Assembly: GCA_050273025.1 (NCBI GenBank)
Contig: CP158635.1
Location: 18,600,001-18,664,000, forward strand
Length of the DNA stretch: 64,000 nt
From: Cenococcum geophilum
Taxonomy: Eukaryota
Direction of reading: 5' to 3'
Numbering within the stretch: the first letter of the stretch is position 1; each line of letters starts with the position of its first letter. The notes beneath the pieces were generated by a model. The model saw nothing but the letters and a program-made list of their open reading frames with translations, had not been told where the DNA came from and ran no database searches. Position numbers and translations under genes: made by a program. Shown piece after piece: positions 30,802-61,948 of this stretch.

Positions 30802-33800
30802 TGTTACGGACGCTTTAAGTACAATATTATGACTACTTGGAGAAGAGACGGAAGAAGCTAGTTAGTTAATTTAAGCACGGTTTAGGATGGAGCCAATAGA
30901 ACTATGTGACGAGGAATGGTAACTAAGGTTATATAATGCGCTACGTATTAAACGAGAGGAACGAGAGGAACTTACGTACCTTACGTATAAGACGTACATC
31001 ACGTACAAAAAGGTATTTCATAGGAGTACGGTTGTGTATTTAAGGACCCTTAGTCCCTACCTAGATAGTTCCTTCTTTATAGTAATTCTTAGAATATAAT
31101 TAGAGTTAATCTATTAGGCAACCACTCTACCAGTTATTATTACGTTATTAACTTTATACTTATATTCCTACACACCTAGCCCAATAACGAGCCCATCGTA
31201 GTTCTTGCTACAAGGTTCCGTTATATAATTACTACCTAGTTACGGTATTAATATAAGAAGTTAAATAACAATATGCCACCAAAAGCAGCTACCATAATGC
31301 CATTAACGGCAGCAACTACTTTAGGGACAGGAGGTGATACCAGTATGGCAGACACTAACTTACAGCAACCTATAACGGTTGGATAGCTATAGGAAATAGT
31401 TAACTAGCTAATAGCTAATAATATAGTATTAGAAGAAAGACTTAATGGGATAGAAGTAGCAAAGATTAAGCTATTATTAATTAAGAGATTTATAGGAGAA
31501 AGGTTAAAGCTTAAAGGATTCCTTACGTAAATGCACTTTAAGGTCTTATAGGAAGAAGTAAAGTTACCTACACCCATGGATTAGATAGCCTATGTAGGAC
31601 TATTCTTATTAAAAAAAGCACTTAAGTAGTTTAAACCTTACCTTATGGAGATATAGGCAAATAGAATAACGACTACTAACTAAGATATACGATTTATGTT
31701 TTTAAGTTAGGAAGGATTCACAGAACGACTTATATAGATGTTTAGAAACCCAGAAGAAACAACTATAGCGGAAAGAAAACTCTAAAACCTTATGTAATAA
31801 ACTTTAGCAATTAAGTATACAATATAATTCTAAACACTAGCAATATAAGTAGAGTAGAATAATAGGGTGCTTATGGCATAGTATAAACAGGGACTTAAGG
31901 CTAAAGTTTAGGACGTAATTATTCTAATAGAAGATGCGGACACCCTAAGGGAACTAATAGATTAGGTAATTAAGATTAATAATTAGATCTACTAAAGGGA
32001 ATAGGCTAAGAGAGGCTAGGATAGAGTTCTATAGTTATATAAGGCGCAAAGTACACAATAACAAAAGCTAAGTTAAAAACTATAGTATAGCGTAAAGCTA
32101 ATAGACCTAAGTGGTACTAAAAAAGCCTATAAGAGATAGAGTAAACTATAAAAACCTAAAGGACAAGGATTAAGTAATTAAAGGTCTAAAAAGCAAAGGC
32201 TAAATTAAGGATCTTAATAGCAGAAGACATTTAGGCGGACTCTATAGTAAGAGAAATGGTTTAAAGAAGGAGCTTATATAAATTGCGGAAAATAGGGTTA
32301 CTATATTAGAGACTATAAAGGCGGGCAAAGTTACTACGTAGTAAAAGGCATAAGACCAATAGACGATATACATATATAGAGGGATGACAATATACTACGA
32401 GGAACAAAAGAGTGTTTAATTAAAAGTTTTACGTTTTGTTATAACAACGTATACTAAATTTATAAGGACGCTAAGTATGGCGCAAGCTATTAGCTATAAG
32501 AGCTAGCACCTATAGGATATAGAGGAACTAATAAACTAGTTTACAGATCGAATATTAAGGATAATAAATTTAACCTAAGCAAAATATTCCGTAATAATAA
32601 GGTAATAAGGGCCGCTTACTAGGAGCGAGTAGACCTCAGAGATGTTATACTAGAGGTAGAGGATAATTCCACTACAGAATAAGGAACATTAGTAGGGATT
32701 AAAACCCTACTAGATATAATGTCTATTACTTTATAAGACGTAAGAGAAGTAGGATAGCGAACCACTTTAGCACTTAATAAAGGCAAAAGGCTAAAAGCTT
32801 GAGATTCTTAAGACAAGATAAGAGACAACTAAGATTCTTAAGACGAGATAAGGCGTACCCTAGGACCTATAACGGACGAAAACCGATAAAGCAGGGCAGT
32901 AGCTTAGTTTAAAAATATACGAATGAGCTTAGAATAAAGTTTCCTATAGATATAAGACTCTTAAGACGAGATAAGTAAAATTTAAGACTCTTAAGACAAG
33001 ATAAGAACACTATAGACGCCTAGTTAAACTAAGGCGGGAGCCAAGCTTAAGTTAGAAGTAAGCTTAGGATTAAAGAATCTAAAGGACTAAGATTTTGGAG
33101 TATAAATAAGGATACCTATAGGCAAGAGGTAAGGAGCTTCTTTATAGATTAGAGAATCTATAATATAAATAGCAGTTAGATTAGGAGATAGATATATAGA
33201 CCTAGAAGACTTACTAGGGGAATATAGTGTTTAGCCTAAAGATTAAAAGTTTAATACTAGGATTAAGAAGTAAGACGACTTTAAGGATTAAGGCGTAAGG
33301 CGCAAACTAAAAGAAACTATAGAAGAATTTAGGCAAAGAATTATTATATAGCAAGAATAGAAACTAGATAAAAGATCTAGTATATTAGGATATATAAAGG
33401 ACAGAGCACTAGTATAAAGAATTACTAATAGGCTAAGAGCAGGTATACTAAGAGCTAAGTGGCTTACTAAACTAGAAAATGAAGAGGATCTAGGGATTTT
33501 AACTAGGTTCAAAAAATAATATATAAAAGGCTATCACAATATAGTAATAAAAAGATACTTCCTTATGGATAGACCATATACACTCTAGTAGCTATACTAA
33601 AAGTGGTATAGGTAAAGGCATAATAATAAATAGGAAGATTTCTATATATAGTTGGATAAAAAAGTTATTTAGGACTACCTAATTATAGAGAAGGCCATAA
33701 TACATATTAAAGGAGCCTTAATTATAACGTTAAAGGATCTAGAGGAATGTTTAGAGGACTGGAGAAGCGAGAGACGTATCTTAGTACTTGCGAATAAAGT

Positions 33801-36800
33801 CGTAACGTTTAGATTAGTACGATAAAGGTTTAAACTTAGGGACGAAGACGAGCTAAGAGTTAACCTAAAGCACCTAGTATACTATACGTTATTATAGATT
33901 GCGTATATAGACAATATATACAAAATGCATAAGAATCCAAAGGAAAAGAATTGGAAATACCCTATAAGAATATACTGGATAACGGATAAATAATAGTATA
34001 GGAATGCTAAATATATATATAGATGGCATCCAGCAGAGGTTTAAGAGGAAGGAAGTGTAATACTTTAACTAGGAAGATTTCTTATGGAAGAATGCTTAGA
34101 CGGACGATAGTAGTAGAAATGCCTAAAAAATATATATCTATAGTATATTAAAGATAAAAAGCGAACTAGGTATTAGCTAAAGAGTAAGCTAAGTGCACTA
34201 GGATTAAGCAGCTAATAGTTAGGAAAAGTAGAGGCCTATAGAACTAGAGGGAGCTAGTGGTAGAGCCTTAGACCCTTAAAGGAATTTAAGGACAATACCT
34301 AAATTTATAAATTAATTGGTAGGATTAGCAGTTTAAAGCGCTAATAGATAGTAGAGCAACGCGAAACTATATCTTACTAGTAGCAGTTAAGAGAATAGGA
34401 CTACCTTATAGACAGAAGGAGTAATTTTACCTATTAGTTATGATTTTAGGGGATCTAATAACCTATAGAGGAGGGATTATTAATCTTAAAATAGGACCTA
34501 TTTAGATAACTATTAAAGGAAGATAAATTAAGATATCTTTTAATATCCTACTATTAGGACAGGACGAGGTAGTATTAAGTATGCCTTAGTTACAGGAATA
34601 TAATTTAAAGATTAATTAGATTACGGGTTAGATTAATATTAAAGATACTTAACGCCGTAAGATGTAATAATAAGCTAAGTTGGTATAGTACTAAGTAGGA
34701 GCAATCTATAAAGAAGTAGAAAAGGGACTAAGTTATATACTAAAGAGATACTATAAGTATGGCAAAAAACTATGGTTACTAGAAAGTAAAAAGCTGTTAA
34801 AATATGCAGTATAGGACTATAAAATAGAATTGGAACTAGAAATAAGTTTAAGGTTTTTTCTAATCTACAAGCTTACTAAAGAAGAAGGTAGAGCGCTAAA
34901 AGAGTTTATCTAGGAAAATTTATGAAAGGGATATATTAGACCATTATAGTTATTAGCGGGTTATCTAGTACTGTTTGTACTAAAAAAAAATGGTAAACTA
35001 AGGTTGTATATTAACTATAGACAGTTAAATAGTATTACTAGGAAGGATAGGTATCCTTTACCCTTAATTAGCGAAATCTAAGACAGGATAGGTAATGCGT
35101 AAATCTTTATGAAGATAGATCTGAGATGGGCGTACTATTAGATTAGGATTAAGGAAGGTAATAAATAAAAGGCAGCCTTTAGGTTAAAGGAAGGACTATA
35201 TAAATTATTAGTTATATAATTCGGACTTATAAACGTACTAGTAATGTTCTAAAAACGTATTAATAATATATTAGGGAAATACTTAGACGAATTTGTTATA
35301 GCATACCTCGATAATATTATTATCTATTTAATAACTAAGGAAGAATATAGGGAACACGTTAAATAGGTTTTAAAGAGACTATAAGAAGAACAGATATTAG
35401 TAGCAATTGAGAAATGCGAGTTTTTTACTAGGAAGACCGATTTTGTTAAATTTATTATTAAACTAGGCTAACTTAGTATAGATCTAAAGAAGATTAAGGC
35501 TATAGTAAATTGGTAGGAACTAGAGAACGTTATATAGTTAAGATTGTTTTTAGAGTTTTATAATTACTATAGAAGGTTTATAGCGTAGTAGTTAAAGGAT
35601 ATTAAGCTATTTACGCGGTTAATAAAGAAAGAAGAACTATAGGTATGGGGAGAGGAGTAAAGAGAACTCTTTAAGAAAGTTAAAGAGTTGTTTACCCAGG
35701 AGCCAGTTTTTAAAATCTATTAACTAGGACTAGAGATAGTTGTAGAGATAGATGTATTAGATTATATACTAGGGGCGTGCTTTATATAAAGGTATTAAGA
35801 TAGATAGCACCCAGTGGTATACTATAGTCGGAAGATAACACTATTAGAGTTAAACTATAACATCTATAATAAGGAGTTATTAGGTATAGTTATAGTATTA
35901 AAAGAATAAAGGGCATTCTTATAAGGTATAGAGAAACTATTTATAGTTAAGACGGATTATAAAAACCTAATAGGATTTCTAATAACGAAGGAACTTAACT
36001 AAAGATAGGTTAGATGGGCAGAGATGCTTATAGAATACTATTTTAAGATTTAGTATACTAAAGGAACAGATAATATGCGGGTAGATACTTTAAGCTATAA
36101 AGCTAAACTATAAAATAAGGAAAAGCTATTAGGGGCTTTATTACAAAAGGATATAGATAGATTAATTAGGTATAATTATCCGGAAATTGTAGTAACTTAA
36201 GAAGATAATAAACTAGAGAAAGTCTATAAGACGCTGGAAAGCTTTTAGGCATAAAGAATTCTAAAAGCACAGCTAGAAGATCTATAGACGGATATATATA
36301 AAAATTAAGAAGCGAAATACATCCTAAGAAGTATAGTAGAGTAGTTTATAGAAGACTTTTATAAGGGACTAACTTAAGGACATAATAGGGCTACGGGCTT
36401 AGTGTTAAGACTTTAGAAGGAATATATTATTAACGGAATCTAGAGAATAGCTAGAAAAGTTATAAAGGAATGTTTAGATTGCTAAAGGAATAAACCGACA
36501 AGGCATAAGCTATATAGAGGGCTACAACCTATTAAAATACTAGAGAGACTATAGGAGGTTATATTATAGGACTTTATTATTAAGTTACCAAAATTAAAGG
36601 ACCTAATTACCGGATAAGATTATAACGCGATCTTAGTAATAGTGGATAAGCTTATAAAGTGGGGATACTTTATAGCATATACAGAAGAAATCTTAGCGGA
36701 AGATATTGCTAGAATCTACGTTAAAGAAGTGTTTATAAGATATAAAGTACTAAGCAAAATTATATTAGATAGAGATCTAAGATTTATAGTAGTATTCTAG

Positions 36801-38753
36801 GAAGTGTTCTTAGCAGAGCAAGGAGTTTAAGTAGTAACTTTTATTATATATTATCTATAAACAGACGGTTAAACGGAAAGATTAAATTAGATACTAGAAT
36901 AATATCTAAGGCATTATATTAATTATGCATAGAATAATTAGGTATCGCTATTACTAGTTATATAATTTGCATATAATGTAACACCTTAAGAAGGAATAGG
37001 TATATTACCATTTAAGGCAAATTATAGATATAAGCTAAGAACATCGTTATTACTACGGTAAGTAAAGAAAATAAGTAGTATAGCTAAAGAAAGGATAAAG
37101 GATTTAATAAATCTTTATACAAACCTTATAGAGATAGCTAAAGTAGTATAATAGAGAATGAAAAGGTACTATAATGCTAAGAGATCTAAGGGACCAGATC
37201 TTAAGGAGGGAGATAAAGTATAGCTATTATATAAAAATTTTAAGAGTTAACGACTAAGTAAGAAATTGGACCATGTTAGATTAGGACCTTTTAAAATTAT
37301 ATAAAGGATTTTACTAGTTACGTTTAAGTTAAACCTACTAGCCAAAATAAAGATCTACCCTATACAGCATATTATAATACTAGAGCCAGCATATAGGAAT
37401 ATTAAGCCACCAGTTTATAAAGCAGACATATATAGAGGATAAAAAGAAGACAAATAGCAAGTTTTAAAAATCGTTAATTATAAGGACATTAACAACAAAA
37501 TATGGTATAAGGTTAAGTAGATAGGCTATACTAAGACTACCTAGAAACCACTAGAGAATTTAAAAAACACTATAAGAAAGGTACAGGAGTATTAAAAGAA
37601 ATTAGGTTAGGCAGTATTAATAAAAAAGGATCGCTAAAGAATAAGTTACCTAAAGGGGACCTAAGAAGAGCAGTTACCGAACTACTTAGATCTATTTCCT
37701 TCTCTATTGGAAGAGAATCCGTTCTTTTATTACCTAGTTCCTATAAACCTTATTTTATAAGTTTCTACTCCTTAGAACAAACCTTCTTATAAACCTTCTT
37801 AAGACAAAGTAAACGAGTAGACGCCGTAATTTAAGCATTTAGGGCCTTCTGTTCTGCGTTATGGGAACGTTCTAACTTAGTAAGGGCTTGCGATAGTTTA
37901 CTATTTAGCCGCGTAGCAGTAGATTAAATATAAGACCCTAAGATAAATTAATTAGGGAACTAGACGACTATTAAGAGTAATAGGTTGCATATATTTAGCA
38001 TTAAAAGTAGAGCGAACGTCATAGGACAAGTAAATATTCGCTTTAGTATACTTTAAGCAAGAGGACGGTTGTTATAAAGATGGGTTCGCTAACGTAATAT
38101 AAACTAATCCCTCTTTCAAACAATAAGAATACGGAGATAGTATGATTTTACTAAGAGATAATATTGCAGTAATAGTGCGGGCACGACGTTAGGCGTATAA
38201 AGAAGAAATTGCTTTAGGTATAATAAGTAATAATAGTAACTAAATTAATTAGACGGATATTATACCTCTAGTAAATAACTTAGAGATATTTTAAATCTTT
38301 AAGGACGAAGATAAAGAGGAGGGAGATGGTGTTACGGACGCTTTAAGTACGATGTTATGACTACTTAGAGAAGAGATAGAAGAAGCTAGTTAGTTAATTT
38401 AAGCACGGTCTAGGATGGAGCCGATAGAACTATATAATAAGGAATAGTAACTAAGGTTATATAATGCGCTATATATTAAATAAGAGGAACGAGAGGAACT
38501 TACGTACCTTATGTATAAGACGTATATTATATACAAAAAGGGATTTTATAGGAGTACGGTTGTATATTTAAGGACCCTTAGTCCCTACCTAGATAGTTCC
38601 TTCTTTATAGTGATTTTTAGAATATAATTGGAGTTAATCTATTAGGCAACCACTCCACCAGTTATTATTACGTTGTTGACTTTATACTTGCATTCCTACA
38701 CACCTAGCCCAATAACGAGCCTATCGTAGTTCTTGCTACAAGGTTCCGTTACA
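30802..38753 (+). mobile_element. Full-length Gypsy/chromovirus LTR retrotransposon A (7.95 kb), RIPped
   Basis: LTRs 30802-31225 and 38330-38753; TSD AACTC; PPT GAGGAGGGAGATGG; gag ATG 31273 with CCHC relic ~32275-32320; pol ~34270-37640 with LIDSRAT protease, KDRYPLP/YLDNII RT, RNaseH, integrase, chromodomain. Confidence 0.95.
37570..38221 (-). pseudogene. Antisense accessory gene relic in Gypsy A: Zn(II)2Cys6-like motif + coiled coil, probable intron
   Basis: Translates colinearly with the copy at 40961-41612; the 3' end is approximate. See findings. Confidence 0.65.
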
Positions 38754-40960
38754 AACTCTAGAGTAAATACTTTTACCTTAATAAATACCTAGTATACTGT
38801 AAAGCTAGCTAACTTTTTAAATATACCTATTAAAGAACTGCCTAAACTAATTTTTATTATAGGTATAACGGGCGGATAGGGCCACCTATTATAACTATCT
38901 TGTGGATTTACCTCCGTATTAATAGATAAAGGTAGTATAATATTCCCTTCCTTATTACGGACCTAGGAAGTTATAATATAATCTTAAAAAGAAAATGGCT
39001 AGCCTATTTAGGCTTATAGCTTAATATATAGAGTAAGGGGCTTATTTAGCCCAAAACCTTACCCCTAACCCCTTTTTTTATAAAAGAAATTAGCATTATA
39101 ATAGAAAACCTTATGCAGCCCTAAATTAATACTATTTACTAGGCAGATGCTATATATAAGGACTAGGCCTTTAAGAAAGATATATAGCTTAACCTATAAC
39201 GGATCCGTATACTATACTGCCCCTAGACTAGCTATACTACGCTACCTATACTAGAGACCTAGAAAGCTAGTAGTAATTTAGCTAAGTTAACTATAGAGGA
39301 TTTAGGCCCTATATAGCTATAAAGGAAAGCTAGAAATATTAGACGCTATACTAAACTAATAGATAGGAAAGATAACTTATAGAAAATAGAATATAAGCTA
39401 AGGAAGACTATAGACCCTATATCGTAAAATATGACCTAATAGATATTTATAAAGAAACTAGCGGACCTCCTACTAGTTAATATCTGCTATATTAGTACCG
39501 TAGGATTCTACTAGAACTTAGTTTAGTCTAATACTATTACCTTTACAACTAGCTTATATAAAATTAATTAAATAATTAAAAAAAAGGAAGGTAAGCTTAG
39601 TAGACTAAAAAGTAAACTTATAGATAAGGAACTAGTGGAATAAAAGCTACCCTATTAACACTAGAAATTTAAGGACGTATTCTTTAAAGTAGCGTCTAAT
39701 ATACTTCTACCTTATTAACCCTATAACTATAAGATTAAGATTAAGCAGGGTAAGAAAAATACCCTTAGCTTTAGCCCCCTTTATAAGCGGTTTATTACCG
39801 AATTATAGGCTATAAAGTAGTATCTTATTAATAACCTAAATAAGGGCTTTATTAAGCCTAGCTAAGCCCCTTTTACTTTACCTATTCTCTTTATTAAAAA
39901 GCTAAATAGAGAACTTTACTTCTATATTAACTACTATAAGCTAAATAATAGAACCCGTAAGGACCGCTATCCGCTATCCCTACTTAATAAAACTTTAGCC
40001 TAAATAAGTAGAGCTAAGGTCTTTATAAAGCTTAATATCCGCTAGGCCTTTTATTAAATTAGAATAGACCCTAGGTCTAAGGATTTTATTATATTTTAGA
40101 CCTATTACGGAACGTATAAATATAAGGTACTTCCTTTTAGACTAACTAACGGACTAGCTACGTACTAGCGGTATATAAATAATATACTCTTTAACTACCT
40201 TAATAACTTCTATACGGCCTATTTAGACGATATTATAATCTATTTTAAGAATAAGCTAGAATATAAGGAGTATATCTATAAAGTCCTATAATGGCTCCGC
40301 GAGGCTAGCCTTTAGGTTAATATTAAGAAGTTAAAGTTTAGTATTAAGCGTATAAAGTACCTAAGCTTTATTATTAATATAAACGGAATTAAAGCCAACC
40401 TAGAGAAAACGGCTATAATTAATTAGTAGGCACTGTAACGAAGCCTTATAGTAGGAACTACGGTAGACTTATTAATGGGCCGGGTATATAGGTAAACAAG
40501 AAGTTAATAATGTAATAATAACTAGTGGAGTGGTTGCCTAACAGATTAACTTTAATTATATTCTAAGATTTACTATAAGGAAAGAACTATCTAGGTAGGG
40601 ACTGCGGTTCCTTAAATATATAACTATACTCTTAAGAAATCCTCCTTATATGTAATATACGTATAGTATATAAGATACGTAAGTTTCTTACGTTTCTTTT
40701 GTTTAATATAGAGTATATTATATAACCTTAGTTACTATTCCTCGTTATATAGCTTAACTATTTCCATTCTAGACTATGCCTATATTAACTAACTAGCTTT
40801 TTCCAACTCCTCTCCTAGTAGTTATAATATTATACTTAAAGTGTCCATAACACCATTTCCCTTCTCTTTATCTTTATTCTTAAAGATTTTTAGTATCTCT
40901 AAGTTATTTACTAGAGGTATAATATCCGTCTAATTAATTTAGTTAATATTGTTGCTTATT

Positions 40961-41612
40961 ATGCCTAAAGCCTCTTCTTCTTTATACGCGCAATATTATG
41001 CCCGCACTGTTGCTGTAATTCTATCGCTTAGTAAAATAATACCGTCTCCGTGTTCTCGTTGTGCGAAAAAAGGGTTGGCTTATGTTGCGCTAGCAAGCCC
41101 TTTATCTTAATAACCCTCTTCCTATTTAAAGTGTACTAAGGCGAACGTTTAGTCCTTTTGTAACGTTCGTTTTACTTCTAACGCTAAGTATACACGTCCT
41201 ATTACTCTTAATAACCTTTAAGTTTCTTAAGTAATTTGTTATAGGGTCTTATGTTTAATCTACGGCTACGAAGTTTAATAGTAACCTAGCGCAGGCTCTT
41301 GCTAAACTTAAACGCTCTTATAATACGGAGTAAAAAGCCCTAAATGCTTATATTGTGGCGTCCGCTTAACTACTTCGTCTTAAAAAGGTTCGTAAAAAGG
41401 TCCGTTTTAAGAAGTGAAAACTTATAAAATAAGGTTTATAGGAACTTAGTAATAAAAGAACGGATTCTCTTTTAGTAGGGGAGGAAATAATTCCAAGTAG
41501 CGTGGTAGCTGCTCCTCTTAGGTCCCCCTTAGGTGATTTATTCTTTAGTAATCCTTCTTTATTAATATTACCTAACCTAATTTCTTTTAATACTCCTATA
41601 CCTTTCCTATAG
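40961..41612 (+). pseudogene. Antisense accessory gene relic in Gypsy B: Zn(II)2Cys6-like motif + coiled coil, probable intron
   Basis: ATG 40961: MPKASSS...PSPCSRCAKKGLAYVALASP...PSSYLKCTKANV*SFCNVR, then after a putative intron a helical segment with A*LLRLKKVRKKVR. The 3' end is approximate. Confidence 0.7.
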
Positions 41613-42155
41613 CGTTCTTTAAATTCTATAGTGGTTCCTAGGTAGTCTTATTATAGCCTATTTACTTAACCTTATACTATATTTTATTGTTAATGTCCTT
41701 ATAACTAATGATTTTTAAAACTTACTATTTGTCTTTTTCTCGTCCTCTATACGTGTCTACCTTATAGATTAGTGGCTTAATATTCCTATATGCTGGCTCT
41801 AGCATTGTAATATACTATATAGGGTAGATCTTTATTTTAGCTAGTAGGTTTAACTTAAATATAACTAGTAAAATCCTCTATATAATTTCGAAAGGTCCTA
41901 GTCTAATATAGTCCAACTTTTTACTTAGTTGTCGACTCTTGAAATTTTTATATAGTAGCTATACTTTGTCCCCCTCCTTAAGATCTAGTCCCTTAGATCT
42001 CTTGGCGTTATAGTGCTTTTTTATTCTTTCTTATACCTTTTTCGCTAATTCTATAAGGTCTATATAAAGATTTATTAGTGTCTTTATTCTTTTTTTAGCT
42101 ATACTACTTGTTTTCTTTGCTTATTATAGTAACAATAATATTCTTAGCTTATATC

Positions 42156-42392
42156 TATTAGCGACTTAGTTAATTAAGGCATAAGCACGGTAAGAGGGAC
42201 GCGTAAGCCTATATAATTGGATTGTCTATAAACGAGAATCTAAAGCTAGGGAAAGGAAAGGAAAAGAAGAGTAGCGCCGCTCGATGTTATATAAGATCTT
42301 CGCGTTACGTAACCGCAATATACGGCAATCTGTGGCAACTTGCTAGTGCGAAGATCTGCTAAGTTCTGCCATTTTCTGCTAGTGCCGTAATA
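42156..42392 (-). mobile_element. Solo LTR related to family F (237 bp)
   Basis: 5-bp TSD ATATC (42151-55, 42393-97); interrupts B integrase relative to copy A; homologous to 19138-19390. Confidence 0.88.
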
Positions 42393-44591
42393 ATATCTAT
42401 AATTTGCCTTAAATAGTAATATACCTATTCCTTTTTATGGTATTATATTATATATAAACTATATAATTAGTAATAACAATACCTAATTATTCTGTGTGTA
42501 ATTAATATAATATCTTAGATACTATTCTAGCGTCTAATTTAATCTTTCTGTTTATCTATCTGTCTGCGGATAATATATAGTAGAAGTTGCTGCTCTAACT
42601 CCTTGTTCCGCTAAGAATACCTTCTAAAATACTGCTATAAATCTTAAATCCCTATCCAATATAATCTTACTTAATACTCTATGTGTTAGGAGTATACCAC
42701 GTATAGTAAGTTGCCGTCACGTAAGGCCGCGGCAGTAGCGTGGTGAGGAGCCTTAAGCTCCTCGCCCTCCCTTATTTAAAAGAATAGAAGAACAATTATC
42801 ATACTATCTACGACCCGTAGCTACGTGGTACCACCTTGTGTAACCAACACTAATTAGTGCTTAACTTTACTGTTATACTATAGAACAGCTAGGTATTCTA
42901 CTAAGAAGAGACGAGCTACTGTACCAGTGCTACTTGTACTAAAGGGAGCTGTCTTTTAAGGTTAGAACTGGTCCTAAACCTTAAATAGAACTCTTCCACA
43001 AATCTAAGGATCTAAAGGCCAGAACTGGTCCTAAGCCTTTCCTAGATTATAGATTCTTACGTCCATTACGCAGAATAACACGCTTTACGAGTCTTCGCGA
43101 TTTAAGGCCAGAACTAGTTCTAAGCCCTATAATCGCAAATACACGTTATAAACGCGTACTAAACAACGAACGCGTACTAAACGACAATCCCTACCCTAAT
43201 AATACTTCCCCCCAAAAACATAGTTACGCCTACCTTAAACGACTAGGAAGACTCCTTACTACTAGGGGTAGCTTTATACGCGAAACTTATTAATGAAGAT
43301 TGGGACGAATTTACTATTAATATAATAACTTATACCGCAAAACAAGTTAACGGCTTTCTCCTACACCGTATTATATTTTACTAAAGTAGATACTACGCCG
43401 ATCTACAGCTGTGGGAATATTTTAGGGAGGATTTTATAGGATGGACCGCTAACACCTAGGCACTTAGCAATATTAATATTGTTTAGGATTTTCAAGACTT
43501 CCTTTGGGAAAAAGGAGTATTTGTCCCTATAGATGGGGGTGCTATTAGAGACAATATTTAAAAGCAAGTCCTTAATGTAGAAGAAGAGCACGAATGGACT
43601 CTATAAGAGATTGAGATTAAGCACCAAATACGCGCTATAAAGAAGTCTAACTCTTAAGGGAATCCCAATAACGGATAGCCATAAGCAACACTATAGACAA
43701 CCTTAGGCTATTAAACACCTTAAGTTCCTCAGGCTGCCGTATCTCAACCCGTGCCTTAAGCTCCGCAACAACCTCTATAAGAACCTCCGCTAATTCCACT
43801 AGCTATTCTAACTGCTATATTACCAGTTATCCCAATCGCTACACCGCTAGCTACCCCAATTGCTGCCCCTGCTACCCTACTTGGTCCTCCTCCTACTTAG
43901 CAACAGTATAACTTTTAGTAGCCTACCTATTAGCAACAGCCTCTATAAGAATCTCCGCAGTAATATCCGCAGCAATATCCGCAGCAACCTCCGTAGTAAG
44001 AATATCCGTAGCAGCCGCAGTAACCGCAGCAGCTATATATACATATACCACCTAAACTGGCTATAACTAGTATAGAGTAAGGACTTAGGCAAGGACCTAG
44101 ATACAGTAAGGAGGTGGCCATAATTATAAAGATCTATATAAACAATAAGTTATTTGTAGCTTGCTAGGGAGTTCCTACCTATAGAATTGCCGTCTCAAAT
44201 CCTGGAGAAGACTTGTCTCAGTTAATTAATAAGTTGCAGCCCTTAATTACTGCACGGGAGAAGGAACACCCTAGTTAAAAAGTGTATACTACCTTCTTTA
44301 CGGATCGCCGCTACCACAATTAAGATTAAGCTCCGTTCTACCAGCAATCTCCGTAACAACCTCCACAATAACCTCTATAACAACCTCTACGTAGCCGAAA
44401 TAAGTGTCGGTTTGGGGCACGTGCGCACCCACCAAAATCATACTTCACGATCACAATACCATAATACAGCCAAATCAATTCAATATCGAGTCATCTGCCC
44501 GTCAGCCCTAATACACTCATGTAGGCGCTTCGTGTACCAGCTGTACATCTCTGCAATCTTCTCCTGATCCACTTAGTTCTCCTAAACATCT

Positions 44592-47500
44592 CATCAGCAA
44601 AATGTTTTTCAGCCAGGCAGGTATCAAGACAAATGACATTAGCTAGCTGATAGGTAGAGACACAGAATTGTACGAGTGATCTATTTTATTCAAAGGTGGC
44701 TCTAAGAGCCCTAATATACATAAGAGAATTGACCCCCTACAGGGGTCCCTAGAGAGTGATGATACAGGTTGAAACTAGACTGACACCGTCTGATACGGAC
44801 GTCGAATAGCACCCGTCGCACCTCTGTAGTAAGGCTACCTTCGTGGCCAATACACCCCCTCAGATCTGAAGTAGAGCGTCAGAGCTGGATTACCGGATTA
44901 GGCAGTCGGGATAGAAGAGCTGGTGGTGAGCTTTGCCGAGCGTCAATTGACCAGATGTCTGATATCGCGGAGCCCCAAGACTTCGACGAATTTTTGATGA
45001 TTTTGCTTTGCGAGAGCTTTAGTTAGTCCGTCTGCAGCCATCTCGCTCGTTGGTACCCATTGTACGACGAAGCTTTCGTTTTGGACCTCTTGGCGAAGCC
45101 AGAACTAATGGATATCTACGTGTCGGAGTTTTGTAGATACCGTAGGGGTCTCTTTTGTCACGATCCGTACTGACTGCTGATTGTTATAATTAATAATAAC
45201 GTCTTGTTCTAGATTAAATCTGATGGCTTTAAAGATCCGAACTATATGCTTAACCTCTCCACTAACGCGCGAGAGAGCTAGGAGTTCTGCCTCCGTAGTG
45301 GACTTAGTAACTACCTTTTGTCTAGTTACCTGCCATACTATAGGCCCATTAAATAGGCTTATTAAGAAACCCTATAAGCTCCGTTATATTAGAGCATTAT
45401 TAGCAAAGCTGGCATTAGAAGCAGCTTTTAGAACCTAGTTTATCTTATACGGCGTAATAGCAGAGAACTTAAGTGCGAGGTATCTGGTATTATAGAGATA
45501 GGTAAGCAATCTATTAATCTCCACAAGATAAGCTAGCGACGGATTTTGTAGGAACTTAGCTAGCTTGCTAACAGAAAAGGCGACGTTAGGTCGTATAGTA
45601 GATGCCGGATATATTGCAGAACCTATACAGCGTTAATATCCTTTTATCTAATTTAGCGTAGCTTCTCCCTTATACGGTGTTAATTCCTAGCCTAATAGTG
45701 GTGTAGCTAATAGCTTTAGATATTCTAGATGGTATATTAAGACTAGCTTCTTAAGATACTGATTTAGACAAAGCTAGAGCTTTCCCTTTTGTCGATCTCG
45801 CACGACACGAGTATTTAGAAATGACGTAAATTAAGGTATTTGGCGTATCTCGAATCGATCTTATAGCTACTATAGGATGTCCTATATCTGCTAATAACAG
45901 CTTAGGTATCCTATAATTAGGATATCATCGACGTAGAAAAACACAAAGATAGGTTTAGTAGGGTGTACGTAGAGACATAGCTCGTCTGGTATAGCTATTA
46001 AACCCATGCTTTGCAGAGCAGCAGACATTTCTAAGAACCACAATTTAGGAGATTTCCGTAGTCTATATATTGCCTTTCTTAGACGGAGAGAGAATCTAGG
46101 CGGTAGGTTTATACCCTTAGGGGGAATAAGGTAGACCTTATCGTTAACTAAGGTATTAACGAAGGCGTTTACGGCGTTAATCTGTATAACGTCTAGGTTA
46201 AAGCCAGCGATAAGAGCGCAAAGTAGACGAAAGGTTTAATAGGCTGCCGTTATAGCTTTAACATCCTCTTATAAAACTGCTTAAAGGTCTCCGTAGATAA
46301 CTAGACGAGCTTTAAATCTCGTAATAAAGCCGTCTATATCTTCCTTGTACGTAAAGACCTATATAGTAGGAAGTTGATAAACCTTTTTAATTAGCCGTAC
46401 CTCGTCCTAGGTCTGCTTTCCAGTTAAGGCCTTTATCTCGGTATAAGCAGCTACTTTAAACTCTATAGCGTACTTATAATTAAGCATCTCTTTCTATAAC
46501 TTTAGTAGCGGTAGAAAGTCGTCTCGATGTCCGTATGTCTTTATAGCAGCAGTATAGAAAGCGTAAGCCAATAGTGTTGTATCTAGATTAATAAAATTAT
46601 TACCGTTATTAATTTGAACCGCAAAGGCTCGTTATTATAAATTCTAATTTAGTATATCTTTCTTCTTTGCCGTAGACCGCTTTTTACGGCTAAAACGTCT
46701 CTTACCCCCTAATAATAAGCCTGCTGTTGTCTAAGGTTTGGAATAAGGTATAGGATCTACAAACAGTGGTTTAGTAACTTCAGAAGATAACTAAGTAGTA
46801 GATGGTGTCTGTGGCGTAGATGCCGTAATAAATGGTAATTGCTAAGGCGCTAAAGATGCTAATAGTTTAGACGGTTCTAGAGTTAGCTTTAGGGTAGGTA
46901 GCTAACGGAGTTCTTCTGTTAAGATCTAAATGCTTTTTAACGTAGGAGTAACGTTAATATTTACTAAATACGGCAGTCCTATATCCAGTTCTTTATTAAA
47001 GTTCTCTATCTAGTCCTTGCTACCATCTTAAAGATTATCTAGTAGGTCCTAGGTTTGCTGAAAACAATCCTTTTAAGCCTATAAGATAATAAGGTATTCT
47101 GGTGTTTCGGGAGATTAATATCTCTTTAACTTATTAATTCATACATTACGAGATCAGATAATGCGGTTAGTAGTTGGTATCTATATCCTATAGATATTTA
47201 ACGCTTCCATACTAATAAGATAACCTATTTAGGCTTATGGCTTAAACTTTGCCTTCCTAGGAATACTGTGTTTAATAAGCACGTAGGTTAAAGATCTGGC
47301 TATATAAAGCCCTGCTAGCTATAGCTTCCATTTATACAGCATCTTAAATAGGGTCTTTTAGTCGACGGACTTAATAGGAGTTTAATTAAGTAGGAATACT
47401 GCTAGAAGCATAAACTTGGGCCATAGATCCACGGGTAACTTTACTTTAATAACAGTAGTCCTTACTTATTTAGAAATGGCCCTTTTTAACCTCTCTATAG

Positions 47501-50500
47501 GTTTATTTAGAGCTAGGGTATCTAGTATTAATTGCTTAATAATACCTCCATTAAGTTAGATAAGATTCTTTACCCTAGCGCCTATACCTTACTCCTTATC
47601 TATATACCAAATGCGGACACCTTAAGCATTAAATTTCTTCGTAAATGCTATTATTGATTTAAAGAGTAGGAGCAGTGTCTCTTGCTTGTGGTTCTTAATA
47701 GGAAAAGCATAATAGTACTTTATATAGTTATACTAAAAGTAAGCTATATACGTGTCTCTATTAAACCTATCTTTTTCTATAATAACATTAAAGTATATAT
47801 ATTTAAAAGGGTAGGTTCCTTTTACTAATATTCTACAAGATGTCTGCTAGGTTATTTTTCTAAGAATATATAGTTTATAAAGTGGTACACCATACGGAGT
47901 TCTTCCTCTGTTTGTCTTAACTACTTTAACCCTATTTACCGTAGTTAGCAGATAATCTACTAACTCTATATTATAGTGTAGTAAGCGTTAATGCTATACT
48001 TTATTATATGCTAAGGTCTTAAAAAATCTAGTGGATACAGCGTAGGCGGTAGAAGTAGGTAGTAAGGTAGCAATAGCATTAATGAGGTAAAGACCTCCGT
48101 GTTCCGTAAGGTTAGTAAATAGGGTTCCGTTATCCTTATAGCGTAAATAGTCTGTAAATTGGTTAATAATTACTCTAACCCTGCGGAGCTTTACTGCGGA
48201 TATTAAATTGGTATGAAAATAGGGAGCGTACGCTATATTCCTTAATATCAGATACCGAGTTAGGCGTTATTTCCCCACCTTAATTGCCAAGTTGATATTA
48301 CCGTATCTATAGATTTCTGCTCCTGAATCTCTAGCTGTTGCTTTAGATATACAAGGCTTAAGGTCACAAAAGTATCTGATATTATTGCAGAAGTGGGTGT
48401 CTGCCATAGTGTTATACCCCTAGGCATTAATTAACGACAGATCCGGATGTTCCTGCAATAATAACGATGAGTAGGATGTTGTTACAGCCGCCGCTGTAGC
48501 TCGAGGTCGGTCCAGATCCTCGATCTTTTCGCTAGTAGACGAAGCTGATAGAGACGTCCTTGACCTAGGGCCTTCCCTCTTAATCTGCTTAAGCCTCCTA
48601 TCGTAATACTGCTTGTTTGTTGGGACCTTAAGCCATTCCTAATACCTCCGTAGATATTTATTATTTGGTATAAAGTTCGGACCTTAAAGAGACTAAAACA
48701 GTTGCTTGCAATTCTTTAACTTATAGGGTAAACCATAAGCAAAGCACTTTGCCTTAGGTGATTGAGAAGGTATTAGGGTGGTAGACGTCGTAGGATCTGC
48801 AGCTGGCTGCCCTAAGAGTGTAGCATGGGCGTTACGTCCCGTATTCGGATGCTTATAGAGGAGGTTAAATTCCTTAATTATGGTCGCTATTTCGAGCTTC
48901 TCTAACCTCTTCGCTACCTTTTAAATAAAGGCATAATATAGAGCTAGATAGATCTCCTTATAGTCCTGGACAAAGGCTTGTATAACGCTGCTTTCTGTTA
49001 CCTCTATTAACCCTTCCTCTAGCTCTTTGCCGTTCTGTATAATAGTAATATAAAGCTAAAGCCATAATTCTAGAGTCTGGCGTTTAGGCCCTTATTTCCA
49101 TTTCTTAAGATCGTCTAATACCATTTGCTGCAACGTAGCTTAAGATAGCCTTGCTACCTTCTTCAGCTATCTTAGAATCAAATGTAGTGTGGTAAGGTTC
49201 TTAAAATACCCTAAGAAGTTGGTGCCTATGGTAGCATGCAAGAGTGCTGCAAACGTATAGAGCTTCTCTTCCCGCTTTAGGTAGTCCTGTCGTTAGAGCT
49301 TATAGAGCTCGAAGAGCATTCTCTATATCTCTAGAGATTGCTAAGTTTGTTGTCCTTGACTTAATAACCCAGGTGTAGCTGTTCCAGTAGATGATGGAGT
49401 TGCTGCTGGAGCTGTAGGAGCCGCTGCTAGTGCTGCAGGAGCTGCAGGATCCGCTGCTGGTGCTGCAGGATCTGCAGGTGCTGGTGCAGGTGCTGTAGGA
49501 GCTGCTGCTATCGAAGGTATGGCTGGCTCATTGTTTTCTTTAATTTCGTTCTCCGTCTTATCTAGGTCGACATAGTCCCAGATCTTTGCAAAACTTGCCT
49601 CTTAGCGGATAAATTAAAACTATATAGGCCAGTCTTTCTAGGTTAGCAAAAGAGGGTTTATAGAGTCCTTGGTTGCTATATTAGCTTTTGTTTTAAGGTT
49701 GCGTAAAGAGACGCGCTTACGCGTAAAGCACACAATATTTCGTGACGAACTATGCTCAAAGAGGCTTAGTGGTAGTCGTCTGGCCACTGAGATTTCCCTA
49801 GTGCTCAGAAGGTTACCGGGCTTATAACTTTCAGCCAGGCAGGTATTAAGATAAATGACATTAGCTAGCTAATAGGTAGAGACACAGAATTGTACAAATG
49901 ATCTATTTTATTCAAAGGTGGCTCTAAGAGCCCTAATATATATAAGAGAATTGACCCCCTATAGGGGTCCCTAGAGAGTGATGATACAGGTTGAAACTAG
50001 ACTAACACTGTCTGATACAGACGTCGAACAGCACCCGTCGCACCTCTATAGTAAGGCTACCTTCGTGGCCAACAATGTTTATGCCTCCTAACAGTACTGA
50101 CAGCTCCTAACAGCTCCTGTTAGGGCTGTTAGGAGCTCCAGAAGACACTTACACTCGGCATCCTGTTAGGAACCTGTCAGGAGGTCGCCCGGACCACCAG
50201 GACCACCAGGACCTTTAGGACCTTTAGGACCTTTAGGACCATTAGGACCATCAGGACAACAATAAAAATTCTAGATTTAAAAATAAGGTATATTAACACT
50301 CCAGTATTTGCAGCTAGTTAAAAAATATAAAATTAATTTAATTATATATAATCTAAATAATCCAAATTAATCTCTTTTGTTTACCGCCTGTGTCTGTTAT
50401 AGAGCTCTACTTAGGCGTCGGGCGATTAACTAAGGAGCCTCTCGCGGAGGCTCTAAATCGTCAATCGGCGGTGTTCCCGATAATCTACTGGCCGTGTGCT

Positions 50501-50522
50501 GATTTCCTAACTAGGCCTAGTG

Positions 50523-50557
<35 letters not shown>

Positions 50558-51855
50558 ATCTGCCTATCCTACCTATCTATGCCTGCCTATGCCTGTCGTG
50601 CCCACCTATCTATCCTACCTGTCTGTATCTGTAATTCGGGGGAGAGGTTAGCCCGATCGAAGGCTCTGCTTAATTCGATTGCGATTAATTATATTAATTT
50701 AAATCGTTCTCTATAGGCGTTTATTGGCTATATATTTAAACGGTAGTTATCTAGGGTGCCTCCCTAAGAGGCCTTAATTCAATTTAATTTGGTAATAGGC
50801 TGATATTAAGGCTCTAGTTTAATTCAATTGATTAATCAAATCAATCGTGGTGTTTGCTGGCTGGTTGTTTAAACAATTATCGTCTGGTTCTAACGATAGT
50901 CCTCTCCTACTTACCTACCTATCTACCTACCTACCTATTTACCTACCTGCCTATGTCAGTATCTGATTTAATTTAGGGGAGAGGTTAGCCCAATTAAAGG
51001 CTCTAATTAATCCAGGTTGTTCTCTATAGCCGTTTGCTAGCTGTATATTCAAACGGTAGTCGTCTAGGGTGCCTCCCTAGGAGGCCTTAATACGATTTGG
51101 TAATGGGCTAATATCAAATTCGATTAATCGATCAATTAAATCGTTCGTGGTCTTCGCTAGCTAGTTGTTCGAAAGGTTGTCGTCTAGTTCTTGTAACGGT
51201 CGTCTGGTTCTGGCGACGGTCGTCTGGTTCTGGCGACGGTCGTCTAGTTTTGGCGACGGTCCTCTGCTGGCTGCCGTTCTAGTGCCTCCTAAGGGAGGAT
51301 ATAAGGAAGGGTAAAGAATGGGGTGACTGCAAAGGGGGTAACTTAGCAGAGGCACATGTAGGCTATTAGGAATATAGCGGGGACCTAATAGCACTGTGTG
51401 TCGCGCGCACGCGTATATAGGGTCGTGTCGCATTAAGGGGGAGGTATCCCATTAGGGGGGGTATTACAGTAGGGAGGGTGTCGTATTGGGGGGGTGTCTT
51501 AAGGGGTGTGCATAGGAGGTGTTGCTTTAGGGGGGGGGGTTAGGAGGGGTATCGCTTAGGGGTATCCTGTTAGGAACCTAATAGGATAATTAAGAAAATT
51601 AAGATCCTGCCAAGAGCCTGTTAGGAATGATTAGGAAATACTAGTTTCCTATTAAGACCCTAACAGGACCGTAAGAGGACGATTAGGAAATCAAAGATCC
51701 TGCCAGAAGCCTATCAGGACGACTAGGACAATTAGGAAAATTAAAATCCTACTAGGAGCCTGCCAGGAGCCTACCAGGACGATTAGGACCTTTAGGAAAG
51801 TCAAAATCCTATTAGGAGGCCTCTAGGATCTTAGCACCCCAACAAAATGCTAATG
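44592..51855. mobile_element. Non-autonomous TIR element with 2-bp TSD and subterminal repeats (CACTA/CMC-like?), ~1.79 kb without the Copia
   Basis: Ends CATCAGCA...TGCTAATG with TSD CT. Removing it restores the Tc1 reading frame (ERFI-DV*EN). Clusters of CCTGTTAGGA/CTCCTAACAG repeats near both ends. Confidence 0.68.
44607..50074 (-). mobile_element. Full-length Ty1/Copia LTR retrotransposon (5.47 kb), moderately RIPped
   Basis: 246-bp LTRs 44607-44852 and 49829-50074; TSD ATGTT; PBS GTTATAAGCCC (GGTTATGAGCCC type); PPT; integrase before RT; motifs FKARLV, IDAVNAFVN, FFYVDDI, KLRHVDIH, MAADGLTK. Confidence 0.95.
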
Positions 51856-53568
51856 CTATAAAACGCTCTAATGCTATATCCTCTTCCACGCGCTTTAAAT
51901 GGAATTTCTTCTTAATAGGATGGGCTAAGGACTCTATAATTAATAGATCTGGTGATAAACCAGGCAATATTAAAAGCTTTAAGTCCCATTCCTTTACCCA
52001 GGCTAAAGACTCCCTTAATTTATGCGCTAAATCTGTATCCTGGTATAAAGTAATTCCCTTAATATTAAACTTTAAAAGAAGCCATGGTAACACCTACTTG
52101 GTATAGGCTTTTAAATTTATCTTACTTACCTGGTTATCCACCTTATATAAGAAGAACTTTTTTTAGGTCCTGCTAATAATAATAAAGACATTAAACAGTT
52201 TAAGATGTTTCTTCTCCTAGGCCTTCTCCTTTTTATCCTTTTTAGTAACCCCCTTCTTCCTATAAATATTCTATGGTAAATAGCGGTAAAGATTACTACT
52301 TTTTCTCTTAATTTTATGGGTTTCTTCTGCACCTAAACTAAAGTAATATTTATTATAAAAAGCAATATTATTCTAGTCTTTAGGATAGGGTCTTTTTTCT
52401 AGCTATAAATAGTACTAATTCTTTCTTCTATCTGCCTGCTCCTAGTTAAGCTACTTCTCTTCTTCTATCTTTGCATTAATATACCCTTTATCCTTTTTTA
52501 TAGCTCTTTAAATTAGCTTATTTCTAAGAGGTTAGTAACTTATTCTTTAAGTTAGAACTATTAGAAGATCTTTATAATTTAGGGCCTTTTAAACAATAGT
52601 CTGCTATAGGGCTAATTTTAAGTCTTAATTAAGATTGGGGTCGTCTAAATACACAGCAATAGCGTGGATATCTTCCTTTATAAGAGCTCGATTTCTCCCT
52701 CTTATTTCTAGCCTAAAATTATATATAGTTCTGCATTGCTTTAAGGCCACAATACGTTACTAAGAGTGCTCTATAATTCTAGTAGCCTGCTATATAATAG
52801 CTAGAGGAATGGCCTTGCCCAGTAATTGGCCAAAGATTTTAGCGTAGAGAACTCCTATACGTAGAGGAGTCTTTAGATGCTTATTTTCCCTAGCATTATA
52901 GTATAATTCTGGGGGTGGGGTAAAGTGTTTTGCCCGTATTTTTCGGGATGCAGGCTCCTTGGTAACTTGGGTCATAATTAGTAATTGCAGCGAACGAATT
53001 TGGGTGCGAAATGGTGGTGTTGTGAGGTTTGTTATGATTGTGAGGCATGCTCAGGGGGCTTTGTTTGGGTGGGGCGCGCACGTGCCCTAAACCGACACTT
53101 ATTTCGGCTACGTAGAGACAACCCAGATCTGCGAACAGTACCTATATTGCTCGTTTTTGGCACCTACCCCTAAATGACTAACGATTCTCTACTATCTCTA
53201 TCCGTTACGTAACGAGCTAAGGCTATCCGTAAGGCAATTTGAGGTTATAACAGCTTTAGATTTACCACTTAGTTAACCACCATTTTCTTTAGCAAATTTT
53301 AGGATAGCGAGACTTATATTGCAATAGCAATAGTAAGTAAGAAGGATTGATATTCATTACGCTAGTTAAGCGGTATTTATATGTAGATAGCAACCATAAA
53401 AGAAGAGTTGCTAGTGTTGGGAGTATACCACGTGTGGCAAGTTGCCGTCACGTAAGGCCGCGGCAGTAGCGTAGCAAGGAGCCTTAAGCTCCTCGCCCTC
53501 CCTCATTCAAAAGAATAGAAGAACAATTATCATACTATCTACGACCCGTAGCTACGTGGTACCACCTT

Positions 53569-54007: not shown

Positions 54008-55179
54008 TTGTGTAACTAACACTATGTCTTATAAATACTTCTTCAATATAGATTCTAGCGATATCTTCTACTAAGATTTCTTCTGTGTATGCTATAAAGT
54101 AGCCCTATTTAGTTAACTTATTTACTATTACTAAGATTACATTATACTCTTATTCGGTAATAGGATTTCTTAACTTTAGTAACTTAATAATAAAGTCCTA
54201 TAATATAACCTCCTATAGTCTCTCTAGTGTTTTAATAGGTTATAGCCCTCCGTATAGCTTATACCTTATTAGTTTATTTCTTTAATAATCTAAATACTCT
54301 TTTATTACTTTTCTAGTTATACCCTAGATTTCTTTAATAATATATTCTTCCTAAAGTCTTAACACTAAGCCTGTTGCTCCGTTATGTCCTTAAGTTATTC
54401 CCTTATAGAAATCTTCTATAAAATGCTCTACTATGCTTTTTAGGATATACTTCGCTTTTTAATACTTATATATATTCACCTATAAATCTTCTAGCTATAC
54501 TTTTAAAATTCTCTATACCTAAAAGCTCTTTAGTATCTTATAGACTCTTTCTAGTTTATTATCCTCTTAAGTTACTACTAGCTTAGGGTAATTATATCTA
54601 ATTAACCCCTTATTATTTCTGCGTAGTATTACTTCTAATAGTTTTTTATTGTTTTATAATTTAGCTTTTCTACTAAGTATATCTACTCTTACATTTTTAG
54701 TTCCTTTAGTATGCTAAATTTTAAAATAGTATTTTATAAGCATCTCTACCTATCTAACCTATCTATAATTAAGTTCTTTTATTATTAGGAACCCCGTTAG
54801 GTTTTTATAATCCATCTTAACTATAAATAGTTTTTTTACGCCTTGTAAAAATGCTCTTTATTTTTTAAGTGCTGTAATTATACCTAATAACTCCTTATTA
54901 TAGATGTTATAGTTTAACTCTAGTAGTGTTATCTTCCGACTATAGTATGCTACTGGGTGCTATATATTTCTATACTTCTATAGTAAATATACTCCTAGTA
55001 TAAAGTCTAATATATCTATTTTTATAATTATATCTAGTCCTAGCTAATAGATTTTAAGGATTAGCTCCTAGGTAAATAGCTCCTTAAGTTCCTTAAATAG
55101 CTTCTTTTATTTATCTCCCTCTACCTATAGTTCCTCTTTCTTTATAAGCCTAGTAAATGGTTTAATATTCTTTAACTAC

Positions 55180-61100: not shown

Positions 61101-61948
61101 TAGCTGTTCTACTGTAGCTCTCCCAACCGCCAGACCCTACCGTTTCAATCGCCCCGCCGCCGCCTAACTAGCTGCCTCCGACCGACTGCTACCGACCGTT
61201 CTATTATTAACCGTTCTATTACTGCTACTACTGCTACTGCTACTACTGTATTAACCAACTGCTACCGACTAACTGCCATCGACCGTCTGCCGTTACTAAG
61301 ATTTCTGCTACCAAAAGTTCTGCTGCCGGATGTCCTACTGCTTACTAACTATTAGTAAGTTCTTCTACCAACTGTTCTACCACCAACTGTTCTTTTTTAT
61401 TTTACCACGCTAACTGTCTACTTTTATTATTATTGCTACTACCATTACCGCTACCGTTACTGCCGTTACTGCTACCGTTATTATTTCTAGTTTACTACTG
61501 TCCTAGTTACTAGATTAGATCTTAGCTATAGGTAACAAAAGGACGCTATAGAACAGTTCTATAGGAGGGCTGAGGACGAGGTTATCTACGTTCTCTTAGG
61601 GATGCGCTTTCCTTTTTCTATTCTGCTTTTACTATTCTTTTATTTAGCTATTCTTCTATAGTATAAAACGTTAGGGGACAACGTTCTTAGTAGGGGAGGT
61701 ATATAGTAGGGTAAAATAGGCCACTACTTAGTGCCTTGGCATTTTCCTGTATATATCAAGCCTTTGGCTTCTCTCCTTCTCTTAAGCACGACTTACCAAA
61801 ATACATTCTTTCCTTTCTTCTTACTGACTGCTTTCCTACTAATTGATTACAACTGACGACCGACCGACCGACCGACCGACCGACCGACCGACAGACAGAC
61901 AGACGGCACTGTGACTTTCCTATCTGAGAGTGGTCGTACCCTCCCACA
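55180..61948 (+). mobile_element. LTR element D (6.77 kb), gag-like ORF but no recognisable pol (non-autonomous, LARD-like)
   Basis: LTRs 55180-55422 and 61702-61948 containing (CCGA)n(CAGA)n; 4-bp TSD CTAC; PPT before the 3' LTR; gag relic PAPGTIRTPYFTGQNI..FIKQYKRLC (~56460) and a knuckle relic ~57630; no RT/integrase motifs seen. Confidence 0.85.

Follow-up and report, generated by a model that had tools for sequence, protein, structure and literature searches.

The window analyzed here, a 64,000-nt stretch of Cenococcum geophilum DNA (assembly GCA_050273025.1, contig CP158635.1, positions 18,600,001 to 18,664,000 of the forward strand), contains two decayed copies, A and B, of one long terminal repeat (LTR) retrotransposon. 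Its domain order, its LTRs, its polypurine tract (PPT), and the chromodomain of its intact relatives (loci L003 and L004) identify the host element as a Ty3/gypsy chromovirus. In both copies, the stretch between the chromodomain end of pol and the PPT can be read as a gene on the strand opposite gag-pol. We consider the two stretches to be copies, killed by repeat-induced point mutation (RIP), of a real third gene of one fungal Ty3/gypsy chromovirus lineage (probability approximately 0.9). Sequence comparison of intact elements indicates that this gene is under purifying selection about as strong as that acting on pol. In the window itself the gene is dead: copy B has nine in-frame stops and copy A has seven, copy A lacks an ATG, and both splice donors read AT. 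A preliminary description, made from the window sequence alone, had reconstructed the protein from the damaged copies. That reconstruction is correct, and the coordinates, strands, and letters it quoted for A and B match the window sequence.

Relatives of the antisense gene

A two-row profile of the exon 2 peptides of window copies A and B (full HMMER search) matched 51 proteins at E ≤ 1e-3; the E value was 1e-10 or lower for 15 of them, the lowest being 2.1e-23. These relatives were 36-335 residues long, only one being longer than 151 residues, and many shared the end point and the last residues of the window frame. A second profile, built from 14 relatives, matched 53 proteins, and a query with the N-terminus (P0076/P0056-type) matched eight. 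Two database proteins, P0076 (152 aa) and P0056 (239 aa), join exon-1-like and exon-2-like sequence in one chain and have all six cysteines of the motif described below. In a third, P0099, the first 11 residues are identical to those of copy B and the third Cys is kept.

In a scan of metagenome contigs, 424 stretches matched, 108 of which encode a relative; 80 were taken as loci, from six contig-name series. Gypsy pol matches were found at 79 of these 80 loci. At 77 of them, exons 1 and 2 were paired on one strand, antisense to gypsy pol and tail to tail with the chromodomain, which bears out the earlier claim of an element-borne antisense gene between chromodomain and PPT. The opposite-strand pol end lay 16-55 nt inside the 3′ end of the gene at 69 of the 77 paired loci. 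Place, strand, and intron site were constant across subfamilies whose proteins are 36-69% identical to the query.

Most related loci are riddled with stops: among 58 resolved loci, only L003 (209 residues) and L004 (197 residues) are fully intact and have all six cysteines. Their pol ends exceed the Pfam cut-offs for SH3_Tf2-1 and for Chromo, the latter with 35.7 bits (L003) and 36.7 bits (L004) against a cut-off of 25.1.

Selection on the two strands

Loci L003 and L004 are 80-89% identical in every segment, and both frames were tested on this pair because the pol frame stays open across the gene. The antisense frame gave a ratio of non-synonymous to synonymous substitution rates (dN/dS) of 0.06 in exon 1 (30 synonymous and 8 non-synonymous differences) and of 0.21 in exon 2, the chromodomain overlap being left out (80% amino-acid identity). 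Over the same exon 2 stretch, the pol frame gave 1.33 (55% amino-acid identity); shifted frames gave 1.35-2.8. For true pol, dN/dS was 0.08-0.09, and dS was similar in the gene (0.65-0.75) and in pol (0.72-1.1). The pol-frame value over exon 1 (0.20) is uninformative because both frames share third positions there.

Variation among copies shows the same frame preference. Among 57 copies, transversion-variable sites (minor class of four or more copies) at codon positions 1, 2, and 3 numbered 11, 7, and 32 in exon 1 and 24, 26, and 48 in exon 2. Between window copies A and B, codon position 3 accounted for 11 of the 13 transversions in exon 1 and for 5 of the 8 in exon 2. Given the low antisense dN/dS and the excess at position 3, selection acts on the antisense protein; the codon-level conservation that the preliminary description had proposed to look for by dN/dS is thus present in the L003/L004 pair.

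The coding feature might instead be a C-terminal extension of Pol on the sense strand, the antisense frame being only its mirror. Past the chromodomain, the pol frame of L003 and L004 continues without a stop for 301-320 codons, crossing the gene, its intron, and the PPT and reaching into the LTR; in L018, which belongs to another subfamily, it remains open for at least 137 codons, as far as the contig extends. When the antisense coding sequence (CDS) was re-coded synonymously, the pol frame was stop-free in 2.5% of 5000 trials. Pol-frame stops in the pol tail of the window copies fall on Q, R, or W codons of L004 in 23 of 28 cases (copy B) and 20 of 25 cases (copy A), and in exon 1 the shared third positions keep the codon-position test from separating the Pol tail from the antisense frame. 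The open pol frames weigh against the reading of the stretches as an antisense gene, as does the restriction of the dN/dS test to one pair, only 2 of the 58 resolved loci being intact. Exon 2, however, separates the two frames: in addition to the opposite dN/dS values, third codon positions of the gene coincide there with second positions of pol, and transversion-variable sites concentrate at them (48, against 26 at pol position 3). A conserved 55-nt GT..AG intron and proteins that span its junction also argue for the antisense gene, and no Pfam domain was found in the Pol tail. We therefore regard a Pol extension as the real coding feature as very improbable. The pol tail may well be translated, yet its sequence is not what selection keeps.

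Hypervariable exons were considered as a separate feature, raised by low read depth at 40956-41419 and by high transversion distances among the 57 copies (0.084 and 0.111 in the exons, 0.034 in pol). The idea was dropped because L003 and L004 are evenly diverged and selection against transversions is stronger in pol.

Damage pattern and reconstructed frame

Copies A and B lie tail to tail, 37024-38753 matching 42158-40434 at 81.5% identity over 1733 columns (self-BLAST; 1409 identical columns, 260 transitions, 56 transversions, and 7 gap columns). None of the gap columns falls within 40961-41612. The copies are for that reason colinear in every frame, and colinear translation alone is no evidence of coding: the colinearity reported in the preliminary description is real but carries no weight.

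The window is an AT-rich repeat region of RIP type. Read against the customary thresholds, the RIP indices of both copies differ from those of a control region of normal GC content. TpA/ApT was 1.62 in copy A, 1.73 in the copy B part, and 0.90 in the control (3000-7000); (CpA+TpG)/(ApC+GpT) was 0.44, 0.38, and 1.22, respectively. The sequence context of the transitions between A and B gave no clean CpA preference, so that the case for RIP rests on the two indices.

Removal of a 55-nt intron leaves a 597-nt in-frame CDS in each copy. All 16 in-frame stops, from both copies together, align to Q, R, or W codons (CAA/CAG, CGN, TGG) of the intact L003 and L004. The six Cys codons now read TGT, TGT, TAT, TAT, TGT, and TGT in copy B and TAT, TGT, TAT, TGC, TAT, and TAT in copy A. 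As had been described, each Cys codon but the third survives in at least one of the copies, whereas the third reads TAT in A and B alike; intact relatives have Cys at that place.

Motif and helix could in principle be a chance product of two related AT-rich non-coding 3′ regions. The trivial colinearity of A and B would allow this, and so would the searches with the raw copies: raw window peptides gave no match of the antisense gene to Zn_clus or any other Pfam family, and a word-index protein search with copy B exon 1, stops read as X, gave no match. Chance is nevertheless refuted by profile E values down to 2e-23, by an arrangement repeated at 77 of 80 loci, by antisense dN/dS values of 0.06-0.21, and by the placement of every stop on a Q, R, or W codon.

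Intron

The intron of both window copies begins with AT and ends with TATAG. Where the junction could be placed in related loci (58 loci), all had an intron, which measured 55 nt at 55 loci, 127 nt at two, and 61 nt at the remaining one. Its ends were GT..AG at 20 loci, AT..AG at 37, and GT..AA at one, and an AT donor is what a TpG-to-TpA change in T/GT would yield. Six database proteins (P0076, P0056, P0001, P0018, P0069, and P0052) span the junction, a Trp codon being split T/GG, and they thereby place the window intron at 41190-41244 (copy A, 37992-37938). The putative intron of the preliminary description is present, with its damaged donor and its TAG acceptor; its length is 55 nt and not 65-70 nt.

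Other database proteins match on one side of the junction only. P0095-P0099 continue beyond exon 1 with unrelated sequence, as would be expected of read-through into the intron, and P0053 and P0007 start with unrelated residues just ahead of the start of exon 2. The junction-spanning proteins suggest an origin from spliced RNA; this origin is read from sequence and from short contigs, a further point to be set against the antisense gene. Transcription would run inward from the PPT/3′ LTR side, and the transcript would be spliced. Being antisense to the genomic RNA, the intron would persist through every round of retrotransposition. The data agree with the earlier proposal that retrotransposition leaves an antisense intron in place, since all 58 junction-resolved DNA loci have kept an intron.

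The 61-nt intron (L007:548-608) and the 127-nt introns (L014 and L016) belong to other subfamilies and interrupt the same codon. RIP-damaged L028 (359-394), which is outside the set of 58, has lost the 5′ part of the intron.

The six-Cys domain

The predicted protein of approximately 198 residues consists of a basic N-terminus, six cysteines, a helix predicted to be at least 75 residues long, and a short conserved tail. The intact P0076, L003, and L004 have Cys at all six places with the spacing C-x2-C-x6-C-x13-C-x2-C-x8-C, exactly that rebuilt from the damaged copies in the preliminary description.

The N-terminal domain, here L003:4034-4273 plus 13 relatives, was compared with Pfam. Zn_clus (PF00172) was the family most often matched (11 of 14 sequences at E ≤ 10), the match spanning only half of its profile. 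DUF3716 (PF12511) was matched by 5 of 14 sequences, with a best E of 6e-4; its match to L003 (18.6 bits, E = 0.0017) covers profile positions 4-59 of 59 and is below the cut-off of 22 bits.

The earlier assignment to the Gal4-type Zn2Cys6 family is not established. The likeness to Gal4-type factors (PF00172) lies in six Cys, with C-x2-C-x6-C followed by C-x2-C-x8-C, in short helices modelled at the CxxC pairs, in a linker, and in a long helix predicted to self-associate. Against the assignment stand the following results. The Zn_clus gathering cut-off of 21 bits was reached by none of the 14 sequences (best 17.0 bits, E = 0.0063). A profile searched against all PDB chain sequences returned no zinc-cluster protein at E ≤ 10, and one unrelated match at E = 0.59. 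The predicted local distance difference test score (pLDDT) of the Cys region was low, 37-73 over the models and 48-73 in the AlphaFold2 (AF2) model of P0076. Lastly, the Gal4 dimer is unlike the antiparallel model described below. A Foldseek search of the PDB with the 152-residue model gave no match at E ≤ 0.001. A wide VIA-align search with a model of the N-terminus only (80 residues) reached a Z of 2.7 at best and returned no zinc-cluster entry, which says little because the mean pLDDT of this model was 56.8. Further differences from Gal4-type factors are the 13-residue loop, the few basic residues between Cys2 and Cys3, a much longer helix that is antiparallel in the model, the lack of an activation or middle-homology region, and the location of the gene on an element with a product of only approximately 200 residues. 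A true Gal4-type binuclear cluster is possible, with the odds somewhat against it.

The gene may be real and its Cys domain another zinc module, DUF3716-like or a knuckle or ribbon on the CxxC pairs, in which case the protein need not be a transcription factor. DUF3716 is likewise a fungal Cys-rich domain of approximately 60 residues, and its match to L003 runs over nearly the whole profile, as against half a profile for Zn_clus. Cys3 and Cys4 are separated by a loop of 13 residues, one over the 5-12 of the PROSITE Zn2Cys6 pattern, which we take to be C-X2-C-X6-C-X5-12-C-X2-C-X6-8-C; there is one basic residue only between Cys2 and Cys3; and the modelled pairing is antiparallel. However, Zn_clus remains the family most often matched and both families score below cut-off, five of the six spacing elements fit the Zn2Cys6 pattern that we assume, and short helices begin at both CxxC pairs, right after Cys34 and Cys58 in the AF2 model of P0076, as in Gal4. 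Passages of two papers report DUF3716 itself from accessory genes that a Zymoseptoria DNA transposon carries (PMC8232023) and from a protein described there as the orthologue of a Neurospora binder of telomeric sequence (PMC10776026). That transposon, unlike the present host, is a DNA element, and the sub-threshold score (18.6 of 22 bits) and the small number of matching sequences also set the domain apart from DUF3716. We give another zinc module slightly less than an even chance.

The weak similarity to Zn_clus would also be expected of a recently captured fragment of a host Zn2Cys6 transcription factor, carried passively by the element, and host zinc-cluster genes are numerous in ascomycetes. 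Recent capture is very improbable: the place, strand, and intron site of the gene are shared by subfamilies whose proteins are no more than 36-69% identical to the query, purifying selection acts on it, and no host-type factor was matched at the Pfam cut-off. An ancient capture of a host gene, as distinct from a recent one, may have taken place.

The long helix and predicted self-association

The AF2 model of P0076 (mean pLDDT 81) has one long helix at residues 77-151 with pLDDT >93, in agreement with the helical segment that the preliminary description had placed after the six-Cys motif. A homodimer model scored 0.52; the best control scored 0.00. Of proteins solved as same-chain pairs, 21 of 30 attained this score, and of those solved as single chains, 0 of 23; among eukaryotic proteins, 17 of 29 pairs and 0 of 30 single chains did so. 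The dimer runs agreed in at least 79% of contacts with a partner pLDDT of at least 79; zinc was included and the alignment was not used. Modelled contacts extend along residues 79-150 in antiparallel orientation, residue 94 touching residue 136 of the partner. The protein is thus predicted to self-associate, and antiparallel pairing would put the two Cys domains at opposite ends.

The protein would bind zinc through its six cysteines, pair through the long helix, and act in the nucleus on nucleic acid, most likely on its own LTR or DNA, as an element-encoded regulator. That it is a zinc-binding, self-associating nucleic-acid binder has, in our estimate, an even chance. The regulator or anti-silencing role and the antisense promoter in the 3′ LTR that the preliminary description had proposed are hypotheses. 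A wider proposal is tentative and on balance unlikely: that this fungal chromovirus lineage, a widespread one, has a spliced antisense gene for its own small zinc-binding, self-pairing, nucleic-acid-binding factor, which would control the LTR or counter host silencing, and that this gene lies over a pol frame itself kept open to the LTR, both strands of the same 600 bases being read. Few LTR retrotransposons have accessory genes, and hardly any of these genes has been assigned a function. Should the protein prove to bind DNA, it would represent a regulator encoded by the element itself, in a group of organisms, the fungi, whose genome compartments are shaped by such elements. The natural intact copies L003 and L004 make zinc content, pairing, and nucleic-acid target directly testable; the window copies are dead and have no activity of their own.

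Comparison with known antisense genes

The antisense arrangement itself is not new. According to passages of three papers (PMC8365987, PMC7264820, PMC4227169), Boty-like elements of Botrytis and Sclerotinia carry brtn, an extra gene that runs antisense in the interval from pol to the 3′ LTR; its source, Zhao et al. (2011, Virology 417:248), is taken as it appears in citing passages. The same passages describe brtn as absent from the current B05.10 annotation (PMC8365987) and group it with plant antisense open reading frames (ORFs) of no known function (PMC7264820). Like brtn as described there, the gene of the present element is an extra gene of a fungal chromodomain gypsy element, occupying the opposite strand between pol and the 3′ LTR. 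Unlike brtn, the window copies are dead through RIP; the likeness drawn here is one of arrangement.

Plant gypsy elements (Grande, RIRE2, Retand, and PvRetro13) have antisense additional ORFs between pol and the 3′ LTR, according to a passage of the same review of such ORFs (PMC7264820). The gene resembles these, as described, in position, orientation, and conservation within families. It differs in that their hosts are plants and the lineages listed include non-chromoviruses, and no sequence relation is expected. A literature search for zinc-cluster antisense ORFs in fungal gypsy elements found nothing relevant.

Expression data

RNA run X21 (raw reads, approximately 12% of which were read) gave no read over 40666-41361 and no joint. 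Approximately 11 reads lay over the chromodomain part, and some lay on the LTR in both directions. The LTR reads (40434-40665) carry long unmatched ends and probably come from other, diverged LTR copies. The lack of X21 reads fits dead, silent copies and says nothing on intact ones. Set X19 (contigs, taken as RNA only by guess) gave a thin cover of diverged pieces, and DNA contigs of two organisms contained very many diverged copies of the element.

Features of the window copies

The features of the two copies and of the related loci are listed below. The gag-pol of copy A has the order protease-like region, reverse transcriptase, RNase H, integrase, SH3-like domain, and chromodomain region. 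Pfam matches in its single frame were RVT_1 (1.4e-19), RT_RNaseH (8.6e-20), Integrase_H2C2 (3.2e-5), and SH3_Tf2-1 (8.1e-6). Chromo gave no Pfam match in the RIP-damaged window copy, which aligns to the pol ends of L003 and L004 by tblastn. The leader of the antisense gene had 4 transversion-variable sites of 60 among the 57 copies. Copy B exon 1 aligns to P0076, P0099, L003, and L004, and its last base is the first of a Trp codon; approximately the last 30 nt of exon 2 overlap the chromodomain-coding pol end on the other strand (transferred from L003).

Coordinates of the element features and of the antisense gene in the window and in related loci.
Feature	Position	Strand	Basis or remark
Copy A 5′ LTR	30802-31223	+	92.2% identity to 38330-38751
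Copy A gag-pol, one frame, stops read as X	31224-37614	+	Pfam
Copy A antisense gene, exon 2 including stop	37570-37937	-	Aligned to relatives
Copy A antisense gene, intron, 55 nt	37938-37992	-	No indel relative to copy B
Copy A antisense gene, exon 1, start codon now ATA	37993-38221	-	Aligned to relatives
Copy A PPT	38297-38329		Directly inside 3′ LTR
Copy A 3′ LTR	38330-38753	+	Self-BLAST
Copy B 3′ LTR	40434-40852	- (pol strand)	78-79% identity to 1321-1745 and 30802-31223
Copy B PPT, purine-rich on - strand	40853-40885	-	Read from sequence; equals copy A stretch
Antisense gene leader, PPT to start codon (75 nt past PPT)	40886-40960	+	Read from sequence
Copy B exon 1: ATG, basic N-terminus, six-Cys motif, three in-frame stops	40961-41189	+	
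Copy B intron, 55 nt, donor AT, acceptor TATAG	41190-41244	+	
Copy B exon 2: long helix (coiled coil), C-terminal tail, six internal stops, terminal stop at 41610-41612	41245-41612	+	
Copy B 3′ pol part: SH3-like integrase end, chromodomain	41581-42158	-	Chromodomain end placed by transfer from L003
Open pol frame in relatives	L003:3832-4718, L004:32-906, L018:7-381		Window stretch concerned: 40853-41612

Further pieces of copy B pol follow in the same order on the - strand (42393-42688, 54023-55181, and 61948-63174), and copy B, whose pol is interrupted by other repeats in this direction, seems to be split by large insertions, including DNA of normal GC content at approximately 43000-52000 and 55200-61900. 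LTR copies are found elsewhere in the window at 1321-1745, 30802-31223, and 38330-38753. A third partial copy of the element, inverted and consisting of the 5′ LTR and the start of gag, occupies 1-1746 (89.7% identity to 32548-30801). Another repeat family is present as inverted copies approximately 90% identical to each other (13694-16964 against 30301-26870, and 16959-17266 against 20979-20672).

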